In this document: positions 9,508 to 13,941 of the stretch, piece after piece
Layout of the letters: the number at the start of each line of letters is the position of its first letter
Numbering within the stretch: the first letter of the stretch is position 1
Program-made: the position numbers and the translations under genes
The notes under the pieces: model-generated
Told to the model about the DNA's origin: nothing
Seen by the model: only the letters and a program-made list of their open reading frames with translations
The model's database searches: none
Sequence record: PP952733.1
Strand: one strand, 5' to 3'
Source of the DNA: Escherichia phage vB_EcoM_H12
Length of the DNA: 64,000 nt

Positions 9508-10923
9508 ATGAGCGAATTATTTAAACATGCGCACCTTCATGCAGGTCGAACTGAAAATGGTGCTGTAAACCATACTTCATCAATGTCTGCTCTGGTAGAC
9601 TTCTACAAAGCCGCTGGCTCAAGCCGTAGCAATGTAGAAATCTTACCAGACCTGTTCTACAAAGCTTTGCGTGAGGATGTTGATGTTGCAGTTCGTATTT
9701 TACTGCATATGCGAGATGTACGAGAAGGTATGGGTGAGCGTAAAGCTTTCCGAACTGTTTTACTTCAAGCGATTGAAGATAAAGTTTTAGAGCCTACACA
9801 GGTTCTTCGCATTATGGATAAGATTGCAGAACTTGGTCGTTTTGATGACTTCAAAATCTTCGTAGGTACTCGTTTTGAGACAGATGCCTTCAAACATTTA
9901 GAAGCAGCATTACTAGACCCTGCAACAGCAGGTTTAGCGGCTAAGTGGTTACCACGAGTAAAACCACGCCACAAACAGTTTGTAAAACGTTTCTGTAAGT
10001 TTGCAAACTTAAGTGAGAAGGAGTATCGCACGCTGTTATCTGCACTGTCTGATACGGTTGAGCAAAAAATCTCTGCTAATGAGTTTGGTAAGATTGACTA
10101 CAGCAAGATTCCTTCACTCGCTGCTGCACGTTACCAAAAGCTCTTTAACCGTAAAGATGGGGAACGTTACAAAGCTTACATCGAGTCCCTCTCAAAAGGT
10201 GAGGCTAAGATTAACGCTGGTGCTGTTTACCCATACGATGTGATTAAATCTATCAAGTATGGTAATGCAGATGTTGCTAATGAGCAGTGGAAAGCACTAC
10301 CAAACTGGATGGCAGAAGGTGAGAACATCTTGTGTATGACTGATGTTTCAAGCTCAATGTCTTGGGTGAATCTTGGTTCAATCACTGCCCTTGATATTGG
10401 TGTATCACTTGCTTTGTATGTAGCAGAACGCAACACTGGTTGCTTTAAGAATGAGTTAATGGTTTACTCAACAAACCCTCACTTCATCGAACTGAGTGGT
10501 GATTTACGAAACCGTCATCGTCAGGTAATGCGTCATGTTGAATACGGTTCAACTAACTTACAAGCAGCTTTTGACCGTATTCTTGAGGTAGGTAAGCGAA
10601 ACAACTTGACTCAGAAAGATATGCCAAGTAAGCTTATTATCTTCTCCGATATGGAGTTCAATCAGGTTGATGGAGCTAACGGTCGTACAAACTTTGAAGC
10701 AATTCAGAGTAAGTACAAAAAAGCTGGATACGAAATGCCACAACTAGTATTCTGGTACTTAGCAAACCGTAATGGTACTTGCGAAGTATCTGTTAAGGAT
10801 AATGGTGTAGCAATGGTATCAGGGTTCTCTCCAGCCACTTTAAAAGCTCTGCTTGGTGGTGAGAAGTTTGACCCAATCAGCATAATGCTCAAAGCGGTAA
10901 TGATTGACCGTTACATCTGGTAA
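9508..10923 (+). CDS. vWA-domain protein with MIDAS motif and long helical N-terminal domain; candidate Ro60-like (TROVE-vWA) protein
   Basis: DxSxS MIDAS motif (CMTDVSSSMSW) about residue 277 preceded by hydrophobic strand; about 270-aa N-terminal domain; TROVE-like assignment is inference from domain layout only. Confidence 0.6.
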   Translation: MSELFKHAHLHAGRTENGAVNHTSSMSALVDFYKAAGSSRSNVEILPDLFYKALREDVDVAVRILLHMRDVREGMGERKAFRTVLLQAIEDKVLEPTQVLRIMDKIAELGRFDDFKIFVGTRFETDAFKHLEAALLDPATAGLAAKWLPRVKPRHKQFVKRFCKFANLSEKEYRTLLSALSDTVEQKISANEFGKIDYSKIPSLAAARYQKLFNRKDGERYKAYIESLSKGEAKINAGAVYPYDVIKSIKYGNADVANEQWKALPNWMAEGENILCMTDVSSSMSWVNLGSITALDIGVSLALYVAERNTGCFKNELMVYSTNPHFIELSGDLRNRHRQVMRHVEYGSTNLQAAFDRILEVGKRNNLTQKDMPSKLIIFSDMEFNQVDGANGRTNFEAIQSKYKKAGYEMPQLVFWYLANRNGTCEVSVKDNGVAMVSGFSPATLKALLGGEKFDPISIMLKAVMIDRYIW

Positions 10924-11250: not shown

Positions 11251-11257
11251 GTTTTGA

Positions 11258-11330
11258 CAGAAGACCAATTGCAGCAAACTTAATCTTATTCATCTGACAC
11301 GAAATCGGACAAAGAAGAGATTTGGTCTGG
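11258..11330 (+). ncRNA. Stem-closed RNA-like element A (CAGAAGACCAAT...TTTGGTCTGG)
   Basis: Terminal inverted repeat AGACCAA/TTGGTCT enclosing about 50 nt; conserved CAGCAA next to 5' arm; one of four related elements. Confidence 0.4.
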
Positions 11331-11341
11331 TCATTAAGAAT

Positions 11342-11418: not shown

Positions 11419-11424
11419 AATTTA

Positions 11425-11488
11425 CAGAAGACCGTTTACAGCAATATTTATTAAATTTTTAGCGGAAAAATTGAAAGATACGGTCTGG
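11425..11488 (+). ncRNA. Stem-closed RNA-like element B (CAGAAGACCGTT...ACGGTCTGG)
   Basis: Terminal inverted repeat AGACCGT/ACGGTCT; compensatory changes relative to elements A and C. Confidence 0.4.
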
Positions 11489-11501
11489 TAATACTAAACA
11501 T

Positions 11502-11759: not shown

Positions 11760-11845
11760 AATTATAATAAGTATTTCAAAATGATGTTTGAGAGGGCTAT
11801 TCAGCCCCTCCCTTAAAGAGTTTTTACGAGTATTCTTTAAAGGAG

Positions 11846-11918
11846 CAGAAGACCAAATTCAGCAAGTTACTTAAAATTTCAAGCCAATTTAATTTTGAAA
11901 AATTTAAAACTTGGTCTG
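11846..11918 (+). ncRNA. Stem-closed RNA-like element C (CAGAAGACCAAA...TTGGTCTG)
   Basis: Terminal inverted repeat AGACCAA/TTGGTCT; conserved CAGCAA after 5' arm. Confidence 0.4.
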
Positions 11919-11932
11919 ACTCAACAAATTTA

Positions 11933-12064
11933 CAGAAGACCGTTTACAGCAAAACTTAAACAATCTATTTCTCCGGTAAAGAAAAGGCGAAGGTTCGATT
12001 CCTTCACTCGGCAGATGTCGAGTTGGTGTAATGGTAGCACTTAAGATGATAAACAACGGTCTGG
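11933..12064 (+). ncRNA. Stem-closed element D with permuted tRNA-like module (Y RNA-like candidate)
   Basis: Closing stem AGACCGTT/AACGGTCT; inside, in order: T-arm GAAGG-TTCGATT-CCTTC (11989-12005), 7-bp hairpin ACTCGGC-AGAT-GTCGAGT (12006-12023), D-arm-like TGGTGTAATGGTAGCAC; no anticodon arm or CCA. Confidence 0.45.
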
Positions 12065-12065
12065 T

Positions 12066-12209
12066 AATTATCTTTGTAGATAAGTTATTAAGCTTACTTG
12101 TGAGTATGCGACCACAAAGGGTGAAAGGGTAAATTCTAGATTTAAACCCAACAACGCACATCGCTACAGACCTTAAGCAAGTCTGGGTAGCTTATCTACA
12201 AAGATAATT
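12066..12209 (+). repeat. 19-bp perfect inverted repeat (AATTATCTTTGTAGATAAG / CTTATCTACAAAGATAATT) enclosing about 105 nt
   Basis: Arms at 12066-12084 and 12191-12209 are exact reverse complements; inner hairpin CAGAC-CTTAAGCAA-GTCTG. Confidence 0.6.
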
Positions 12210-12223
12210 TAATGGAAGTGTAG

Positions 12224-12289
12224 CAGAATGGTGATGCGGCAGACTTTTAATCTGACAGGCGATGGGTTCGAATCCCTCCACTTCTACCA
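12224..12289 (+). tRNA. tRNA-Lys (anticodon UUU)
   Basis: Acceptor GGAAGTG/CACTTCT, anticodon loop CTTTTAA, T-loop TTCGAAT (T-stem has two mismatches), CCA encoded. Confidence 0.7.
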
Positions 12290-13001: not shown

Positions 13002-13084
13002 GTGGGACGATGTTAAGACTCTAAGGCATGAGCAACGGCCTCCAAAACCGTTTCAAAGGGGTTCAACTCCTCCGTCCCATGCCA
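13002..13084 (+). tRNA. tRNA-Trp-like (anticodon CCA), atypical expanded D region
   Basis: Acceptor GTGGGAC/GTCCCAT, anticodon loop CTCCAAA, T-arm AGGGG-TTCAACT-CCTCC, CCA encoded; about 26 nt between acceptor and anticodon stem. Confidence 0.45.
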
Positions 13085-13340: not shown

Positions 13341-13361
13341 AAGACCTATTTAGGTCTTTTT
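13341..13361 (+). terminator. Terminator-like hairpin inside tRNA array
   Basis: AAGACCT-ATTT-AGGTCTT followed by TTT; AT-rich stem so probably weak. Confidence 0.4.
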
Positions 13362-13440
13362 AGAGGGCTTCTAAGGTTATTACAGCTTGTTGTGGAACCT
13401 TGTTGCTTAGGTTCTTAGAAGTTCTCTAAAAAGATTTAAT

Positions 13441-13845: not shown

Positions 13846-13850
13846 ATTCA

Positions 13851-13936
13851 GAGGTCAAGTGAAAGACCGCTTTGAGTCAACTGAAGACCGTAACAAATCC
13901 CACGGAGTTGAGTTAGCGGCACAACTTCAGACCTCT
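13851..13936 (+). ncRNA. Structured hairpin element between tRNA-Thr and tRNA-Val
   Basis: 6-bp closing inverted repeat GAGGTC/GACCTC around about 75 nt with nested complementary segments (TCAACT/AGTTGA) and a GAAGACCGT motif; no canonical T-loop. Confidence 0.35.
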
Positions 13937-13941
13937 TTCAT

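Follow-up and report, generated by a model that had tools for sequence, protein, structure and literature searches.

Why does a phage tRNA array hold a long, perfect inverted repeat? The question is raised by Escherichia phage vB_EcoM_H12 (sequence record PP952733.1), of which we analysed one stretch of 64,000 nucleotides, hereafter the window. The repeat closes a 144-nt structure at positions 12066 to 12209, within a 26-gene tRNA array of this Felix O1-like (Felixounavirus) genome. The structure's 3' end lies 4 nt upstream of tRNA-Lys(UUU), which starts at 12214. A first-pass annotation had offered three readings of the repeat: a stable structured RNA, a processing signal, or a DNA cruciform or recombination site. 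We conclude that the repeat is very probably part of a functional structured RNA encoded by the + strand. A fuller model, on which our judgement is evenly balanced, is that the hairpin is a fifth, lineage-specific Y-like RNA. It would be a candidate partner of the Ro60-like anti-defence protein whose gene heads the array.

The inverted repeat upstream of tRNA-Lys(UUU)

The repeat is as first described. The sequence AATTATCTTTGTAGATAAG at 12066-12084 recurs, exactly reverse-complemented, at 12191-12209, and the inner hairpin reported with it, CAGAC-CTTAAGCAA-GTCTG, is present at 12167-12185. The repeat was also said to be unlikely by chance. Consistent with this, none of 60 random windows generated with a first-order Markov model attained 19 bp (range 12-18). 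It is single-copy and is the longest perfect inverted repeat in the window, where the runner-up has 13 bp. A repeat finder extended it to 22 nt at 95%. With G·U pairs included, the closing helix has 24 uninterrupted pairs (12066-12089 with 12186-12209). Its first two bases are also the last two of an upstream RNA, element D, described below. Folding by minimum free energy gave -46.9 kcal/mol for a 154-nt stretch, compared with -27.4 +/- 3.6 kcal/mol for dinucleotide shuffles (z = -5.5; none of 200 shuffles equalled it). The parts of the structure and its downstream neighbour are as follows.

12066-12209, + strand: the RNA under study, element E; a closing helix and three internal hairpins, meeting at a four-way junction
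12066-12089, + strand: closing helix, 5' strand; 24 pairs including 3 G·U, 19 perfect Watson-Crick
12098-12117, + strand: hairpin H1; UUGUG/CACAA stem, loop AGUAUGCGAC
12127-12149, + strand: central hairpin H2; apex palindrome UCUAGA at 12135-12140, the exact midpoint of the structure
12167-12185, + strand: 3' hairpin H3; CAGAC-CUUAAGCAA-GUCUG, stacked directly on the closing helix
12186-12209, + strand: closing helix, 3' strand; followed by UAAU and then tRNA-Lys
12214-12289, + strand: tRNA-Lys(UUU), the invariant downstream neighbour

The Asp-Lys tRNA spacer that holds the hairpin matches 251 phage records, mostly at 95-99% identity. For comparison we used homologous spacers from Felixounavirus (CRP22, DaR-2019a, SPJ41, AYO145A, Felix O1 and IMG/VR contigs), Suspvirus (SUSP1 and mistaenkt) and Mooglevirus (Mordin and Michonne). 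Six distant contigs, with a marker protein 52-80% identical, were added. In all Ounavirinae-like loci examined, a structure of 142-166 nt ends 0-5 nt before tRNA-Lys(UUU). The closing helix keeps 21-24 pairs in every lineage but one, L098, despite unrelated sequences. In L099 and L100, the most distant, it is wholly different in sequence and still has 24 pairs. MAFFT placed these two out of register in the upper stem. Hence, pairs were counted on 14 sequences, and L099 and L100 are described apart.

Across the 14 sequences, 97.2% of cells in the proposed helices are paired. Sliding the partners by 1-3 columns lowers this to 27-47%. In ten pairs both sides have changed, which none of 500 shuffles matched. 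The closing helix alone has compensatory changes at 8 of its 22 pairs and pairing in 98% of cells; in H3 the figures are 2 of 5 pairs and 100%. RNAalifold independently returned the 24-pair outer helix and the 3' hairpin. It did not resolve the interior helices; interiors of the Felix type and of the CRP22/SUSP1/Mordin type are unalignable. The arms are thus kept as a pair in relatives, with compensatory changes. Together, the helix and the 3' hairpin with loop CUUAAGCAA are maintained by compensatory mutation in Felixounavirus, Suspvirus, Mooglevirus and remoter relatives.

The three hairpins vary in different ways. The H3 loop is kept as C(C)UU(A/U)AGCAA across lineages on a stem that covaries; the forms found include CAGUC/GACUG, CAAACC/GGUUUG, UGUUC/GAACG, AAGUC/GACUU and GAGAC/GUCUC. 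Our statements on H1 and H2 come from folds of individual sequences and inspection. By eye, and with no formal count, the H1 stem goes from UGUG/CACA to GGGG/CCCC in L097 and L102 under a near-identical loop (AGUAUGCGGC). The H2 apex is palindromic though its sequence differs, being ACUAGU in L097 and L102 and AACGUU in L099 and L100. The persistent palindrome could serve self-pairing between loops or be a dimeric binding site, or it could be left over from an origin as a long palindrome.

Paired columns contain 44 G·U and only 2 A·C combinations, which speaks strongly against both a DNA cruciform and a minus-strand transcript. Conservation, compensatory changes and strand-specific G·U pairs together give strong support to the stable structured RNA of the first-pass annotation. 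Some observations nevertheless point to function in the DNA, where the repeat could form a cruciform, serve recombination or homing, signal replication or be a mobile palindromic insert. The repeat is long and palindrome-like, with the palindromic centre TCTAGA exactly at its midpoint. HNH homing endonuclease genes lie nearby in some relatives, and the interior comes in two versions that largely fail to align, as though a cassette had been swapped. However, 44 G·T against 2 A·C fits a + strand RNA only, and there is one copy of the repeat in the window. The arms also change by compensatory substitution, unlike a conserved protein-binding sequence. We consider a DNA-level element very unlikely, and the suggested cruciform or recombination site is left unsupported. 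Coding on the minus strand is rejected for want of conservation. An 85-codon open reading frame (ORF) at 11904-12161 is present in the window and in Felix O1, and appears as a "hypothetical protein" in AYO145A (AYO145A_047), wV8 (gp048) and others. The longest minus-strand ORF in the same spacer has 12 codons in CRP22, 38 in SUSP1, 48 in Mordin, 32 in L101 and 8 in L097, while the RNA structure is intact throughout. The 85-codon ORF has no Pfam match and runs antisense through the T-arm and D-arm of element D and through the hairpin. Its annotation in GenBank is likely a mis-annotation. An intrinsic terminator or attenuator within the array would agree with the great stability of the hairpin, but the 24-bp stem is AT-rich, the interior is 96 nt long and the tail is UAAU instead of a U-tract. 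Furthermore, a scan found no terminator-like site at 12066-12215, and a tRNA gene without a strong promoter of its own begins 4 nt downstream. A terminator is extremely unlikely, and a promoter at the repeat was rejected as well.

Strong promoter-like sites on the + strand (10942, 11033 and 12463) only flank the block, and no terminator-like site occurs at the hairpin. We infer from this that the hairpin RNA is part of a polycistronic tRNA transcript. Neither a scan of the array nor a search with the spacer alone at E <= 10 matched any Rfam family to the hairpin. The hairpin showed no T-arm or D-arm in these scans. Adjacent element D has both, as its covariation shows.

Two further conserved hairpins open the same spacer (11788-11845, + strand). 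They are formed by GAGAGGGCU...AGCCCCUC and then CCCUUAAAGAG...UUCUUUAAAGGAG, and show compensatory changes in L097 and L102 (GGAAGGACU/AGUCCCUCC; CCAUUAAAGGG/UUCUUUAAUGGGG).

The Ro60-like gene and elements A to D

The surroundings of the hairpin hold three things that the first-pass annotation missed. The gene heading the array is Ro60-like, element D is a permuted tRNA-like Y RNA, and the inner hairpin is a version of a motif shared by four upstream elements, A to D. The gene and the four elements are listed here.

9508-10923, + strand: gene for the Ro60-like protein; 471 amino acids, Pfam DUF2828 and DUF7788; helical-repeat ring and vWA domain
11255-11333, + strand: element A, a short Y-like RNA between tRNA-Glu and tRNA-Met
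11422-11491, + strand: element B, a short Y-like RNA between tRNA-Met and tRNA-Asn
11843-11922, + strand: element C, a short Y-like RNA; AGACCAA/UUGGUCU helix, then UUCAGCAA
11930-12067, + strand: element D, a YrlA-type tRNA-mimic Y RNA

The hairpin starts 1143 nt past the stop codon of the 9508-10923 ORF, on the same strand. Sequence searches with the encoded protein said little about its fold. There was no sequence-level match to Pfam TROVE and phmmer found nothing among PDB sequences, while a PDB profile search gave a weak Ro60 match (E 0.43). Prediction from the single sequence with AlphaFold was unusable (predicted local distance difference test, pLDDT, 45). The fold was called from an alignment-based AlphaFold (AF2) model with a pLDDT of 89.6. 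When this model was compared with the PDB using Foldseek, all 11 top matches (11/11) were Ro60/TROVE proteins aligned over the full length (E 1.6e-7, template modelling score up to 0.66). They comprise Xenopus and human Ro60, Deinococcus Rsr and the Ro60 of Thermus phage phiLo; lower ranks are isolated vWA domains. The DxSxS MIDAS motif (metal ion-dependent adhesion site) is invariant among homologs. A mycobacteriophage "Ro-like RNA binding protein" is a full-length homolog with ~33% identity. Homologs are present in 709 phage records of the collection searched, and the family comprises 2,885 protein clusters. Besides mycobacteriophages, the sources include phages of Vibrio, Listeria, Campylobacter, Enterococcus and Bacillus.

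A 2024 preprint describing PhageMaP reports, from a genetic screen, that gp130 of Felixounavirus Bas63 is Ro60-like in structure, is encoded directly upstream of tRNAs and counters Ppl defence (PMC11482910). From family and gene position, with no sequence comparison, we infer that gp130 is the ortholog of the window ORF. The preprint also guesses that some of the annotated downstream tRNAs are really Y RNAs, and names none (PMC11482910). The candidates that we have located, namely three short motif RNAs, a permuted tRNA mimic and the long-stem hairpin, are in spacers and not in annotated tRNAs. Their coordinates, structures and shared motif make the Y RNA guess for the gp130 system directly testable.

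Elements A to D are Y-like RNAs. Each is marked by one of four exact copies of CAGAAGACC. Briefly, their common fold consists of a 3-4 bp outer helix, an AGA bulge and a 7-bp AGACCNN/NNGGUCU helix that covaries between copies. After this helix comes (U)UUACAGCAA or U(U/G)CAGCAA and then a variable module. The motif can also be written (U)UACAGCAA; no element of this kind is annotated in the GenBank records examined. We had considered A to D as sigma-70 promoters (TTTACA-N17-...), and dropped this on the folds and covariation.

Element D begins with an outer helix (UUAC/GUAA), the AGA bulge, an AGACCGU/ACGGUCU helix and UUACAGCAA. The module that follows has tRNA parts in permuted order, namely a V hairpin, then a T-arm (GAAGGUUCGAUUCCUUC), a loop-closed acceptor-like stem and a D-arm. 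RNAalifold on 10 sequences found 16 of 26 pairs to be compensatory, including all seven pairs (7/7) of the acceptor-like stem. In a search of 976 nt, the Rfam YrlA model (gathering threshold 69 bits) matched neither D nor the hairpin at a cut-off as loose as E <= 10. The counterpart of D in Klebsiella phage FBKp34 scores 39.6 bits with this model. The order there is a Ro-like gene, two short motif RNAs, YrlA and then tRNAs.

The motif recurs at other loci with Ro-like genes. Among 81 distant Ro-like loci, TTACAGCAA occurs 24 times on the gene strand, over 21 loci, and 4 times on the opposite strand, with 3.5 expected by chance. The shorter ACAGCAA is found 130 times on the gene strand and 49 times on the opposite strand, where chance gives 45. 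All motif copies examined (14/14) directly follow the 5' strand of a freely covarying stem of 6-13 bp. From this co-occurrence we take a terminal helix followed by UUACAGCAA to mark the RNAs that partner this protein family. Y-RNA biology is thereby extended to a large family still annotated as DUF2828.

Linking the hairpin to the Y-like set

We link the hairpin to the Y-like set on four grounds. The hairpin adjoins element D without a spacer, and it shares its strand with the Ro-like gene, which is 1.1 kb away. Further, H3 presents CCUUA-AGCAA after AGAC/GUCU. This is the module of A to D minus one base, closed into a hairpin (10/11 positions match, with one deletion). The third ground is a hybrid form in L098. 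Here, the RNA before tRNA-Lys(UUU) has the canonical closure, with outer helix, AAG bulge, AAUCU helix and UUCAGCA, while its interior ends in UGUUC-CUUAAGCAA-GAACG. Lastly, the array contains a sister of the hairpin:

13348-13439, + strand: sister long-stem hairpin (~30 pairs); abuts tRNA-Leu(UAG), with UUACAGC right after the 5' strand of the stem

This sister shares the ...GAUUUAAU junction with the hairpin at 12066-12209, and L097, L101 and L102 keep it, with covariation. The tRNA-Leu slot of L098 and L100 is occupied instead by a canonical motif RNA with a T-arm. The hairpin is probably one of a so far undescribed set of RNAs that resemble Y RNAs and partner the Ro60-like protein of this phage.

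Several results weigh against counting the hairpin among Y-like RNAs. A hairpin-type motif is not enriched at the 81 distant Ro-like loci, with 3 copies on the gene strand and 5 on the opposite strand. Any link of the hairpin to the Ro system would then rest on adjacency, motif resemblance and one hybrid lineage. The canonical Ro-binding sequences GGUCCGA, GNCGAAN0-1G and CGAA are absent from 12066-12209, and no Rfam family is found on the hairpin even at E <= 10. The CUUAAGCAA hairpin is UUACAGCAA minus one base, and is internal, away from the terminal stem. At 144 nt the RNA exceeds the typical length of a Y RNA. The RNA product, its ends and its binding to protein are predicted from sequence alone. 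Similarly, co-occurrence is what suggests that the UUACAGCAA module itself may be the binding site of the Ro-like protein.

Two other explanations accept the RNA structure and dispense with the Ro-like protein. One is a pure processing stem, in which a site for RNase III parts D from pre-tRNA-Lys and the enclosed sequence is a functionless spacer. The helix keeps a length of 21-24 pairs, one lineage excepted, while its sequence is free, which fits a length-sensing factor. Nothing separates D from the helix, and only 0-5 nt separate the helix from the tRNA. The "processing signal" of the first-pass annotation is compatible with this helix length and with a position that abuts an RNase P site, and it may contribute to the mechanism, but it does not explain the conserved interior. 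The H3 loop C(C)UU(A/U)AGCAA, the H1 loop AGUAUGCGRC and the palindromic apex all persist across lineages. Moreover, other tRNA junctions of the array, with gaps of 2-10 nt, do without such a stem, and L098 swaps the long perfect helix for the bulged canonical closure yet retains the 3' hairpin. We judge a stem of this kind to be an unlikely full account. We are equally doubtful of a stand-alone stable RNA unrelated to the Ro-like protein. Such an RNA would resemble species 1 and 2 of phage T4 and could serve as a leader or chaperone for tRNA-Lys(UUU), or as a decoy for a host factor directed at this tRNA. The T4 tRNA cluster does hold stable RNAs of unknown function, and tRNA-Lys(UUU) is the sole invariant neighbour of the hairpin; upstream there may be D, C, or tRNA-Ala with another structure. 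The hairpin-type motif is also not enriched near Ro-like genes outside the lineage. However, the L098 hybrid and the 10/11 match of CCUUA-AGCAA to the A to D motif point to an origin shared with the Y-like set. The hairpin has no similarity in sequence to rnaC or rnaD of T4, and no sequence feature suggests a specific mechanism involving tRNA-Lys.

If the hairpin is a Y-like RNA, its maturation and use can be pictured as follows. RNase P cleaves at the 5' ends of tRNAs in polycistronic tRNA transcripts. Cleavage at the 5' end of tRNA-Lys would make the 3' end of the hairpin RNA. A second cut, close to or at the D/E junction, would make the 5' end; RNase III, with the two-turn helix as its substrate, is a possible agent. 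The 21-24 bp helix may thus be where RNase III separates D from the hairpin core, or it may act as a double-stranded handle. H3, with its helix and CCUUA-AGCAA, would be the docking site for the Ro60-like protein. The remaining hairpins could form an effector or tether module, by analogy with the complexes of Ro60, Y RNA and the exoribonuclease PNPase in Deinococcus, Salmonella and phage phiLo. RNase P also cleaves the YrlA of M. smegmatis (PMC4201824). Binding of the hairpin by the Ro60-like protein, or its cleavage by RNase III, would amount to a new way to build and mature a Y-type ribonucleoprotein from a tRNA operon.

Comparison with known RNAs and other features of the array

The nearest comparison is with bacterial and phage Y RNAs, namely YrlA and YrlB (PMC4201824; RF02553) and the Yrl1 and Yrl2 of phiLo (PMC12135203). 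As in those systems, a locus holds several RNAs, each encoded on the strand of a Ro60-type gene and at most a few kb away from it. Their two ends pair with each other, and the long stem so formed (here the 24-pair helix) surrounds a variable module. There is one tRNA mimic per locus, which in the window is adjacent element D and not the hairpin; the permuted-tRNA layout of YrlA was described by Chen et al. (PMC4201824, 2014). The differences are equally clear. The phage protein belongs to DUF2828/DUF7788 and its likeness to Ro60 is at the level of fold only. Known Ro-binding sequences are GGUCCGA in animals, GNCGAAN0-1G in YrlA and YrlB (PMC4201824), and CGAA in phiLo Yrl (PMC12135203). In the window the motif is a helix with UUACAGCAA, not GNCGAAN0-1G/CGAA, and the CAGAAG(ACC) of A to D shares just GAAG with these. 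The phage RNAs are interleaved with genuine tRNAs. The hairpin differs further in its 144-nt length, its perfect two-turn helix and a motif that lies in an internal hairpin. The search by Chen et al. was limited to TROVE-annotated genomes (PMC4201824). Phages annotated with DUF2828 only were therefore probably outside that search. In the searchable literature we found no description of the RNAs reported here, and nothing usable on DUF2828, on DDB_G0281243 (see below) or on Felixounavirus transcriptomes.

The stable RNAs of T4, species 1 (rnaC, 139 nt) and species 2 (rnaD, 119 nt), also belong to a phage tRNA cluster, where they abut tRNAs and are encoded on their strand, and rnaC is near the hairpin in size. 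Their function has been unknown for decades, and we know of no Ro-like gene in T4. Comparison of rnaC and rnaD with the hairpin gave only word matches of 7-9 nt (E >= 0.1), and the folds differ. In particular, rnaC has a T-arm-like 3' domain, no two-turn closing helix and no AGCAA motif. Hence, rnaC and rnaD were rejected as homologs, having no sequence similarity and different folds.

A further parallel is with the RNase III stems that flank rRNA operons and with the R sites of the T7 early region, where a long helix likewise flanks a structured RNA in a polycistronic transcript. About 22 bp is the size of an RNase III substrate. With 21-24 pairs everywhere except L098, the closing helix has the length expected of such a stem (at least ~20 bp of near-continuous double-stranded RNA). 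Unlike those stems, the hairpin encloses a core of only ~96 nt with conserved loops, which suggests a function of its own; cleavage at this site is a prediction.

An unexpected likeness is to the Class I RNAs of Dictyostelium, which are reported to be unique to dictyostelids (Kjellin et al. 2021, PMC7919456; Rfam RF01414). Elements A to D and their distant phage counterparts share with Class I RNAs a short terminal stem of free sequence, and (CC)UUACAGCAA right after its 5' strand. The rest of the sequence is variable in both, with AAG close to the 5' end and CUG close to the 3' end. The 11-nt motif of Class I RNAs, CCUUACAGCAA, is matched by phage motif RNAs in the window (11430-11487), in phage FBKp34 (L012, 4532-4594 and 4621-4671) and at 21 of the 81 distant loci. 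With RF01414, element B scores 20.1 bits and two Klebsiella phage elements 25.2 and 23.6 bits, all below the cut-off of 41.5 bits; the hairpin has no match to this family. Phage RNAs are longer than Class I RNAs, and in the hairpin the motif, with its one deletion, is an internal hairpin loop and not at the terminal stem. The likeness may be due to convergence or chance. Among four proteins that a Class I RNA pulled down, one, DDB_G0281243, is uncharacterised. We think it improbable, if worth stating, that all Ro60-like proteins of the DUF2828 branch recognise a terminal helix with (CC)UUACAGCAA, and that phage RNAs and Class I RNAs are one class. If so, Class I RNAs would be analogues of Y RNAs that serve a Ro-like protein, with DDB_G0281243 as one candidate partner. 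The class would take in A to D, H3 and counterparts in Klebsiella, Campylobacter, Sinorhizobium and many uncultured phages. The hairpin would be a specialised derivative that couples the module to a two-turn double-stranded RNA handle.

The array and its relatives contain other unusual elements. In the window, 13004-13078 (+ strand) is a tRNA-like remnant, with a weak score of 23 bits for the tRNA-Sec model, sequence like an anticodon arm and a T-arm, and no ARAGORN call. The spacer at 13846-13941 (+ strand) is an imperfect hairpin of 96 nt with CUGAAGACCGU...ACGG, a degenerate copy of the A to D helix. Cronobacter phage S13 (L013, 4895-5015 and 5025-5137) and FBKp34 (L012, 5003-5113) have oversized "tRNAs" of 111-121 nt a short way downstream of the Ro-like gene. 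The one in FBKp34 carries a 51-nt insertion in its anticodon arm. They may be kin of the Y-like set, either as tRNA-like RNAs without the permutation or as tRNAs with an intron. In Listeria phage WIL-1 (L015, 1429-1980 and 5808-7019), a ROOL RNA (RF03087; 87 bits, just under the gathering score) lies ~1 kb upstream of the Ro-like gene. A gene for an RtcB-type "tRNA splicing ligase" follows ~1.3 kb downstream, which echoes the bacterial arrangement rsr-yrlA-rtcBA. Finally, HNH homing endonuclease genes occur at differing points of the array in CRP22 (L003), SPJ41 (L005), mistaenkt (L009) and Felix O1 (L010). The two unalignable interiors of the hairpin, between conserved flanks, suggest cassette-like exchange by recombination.

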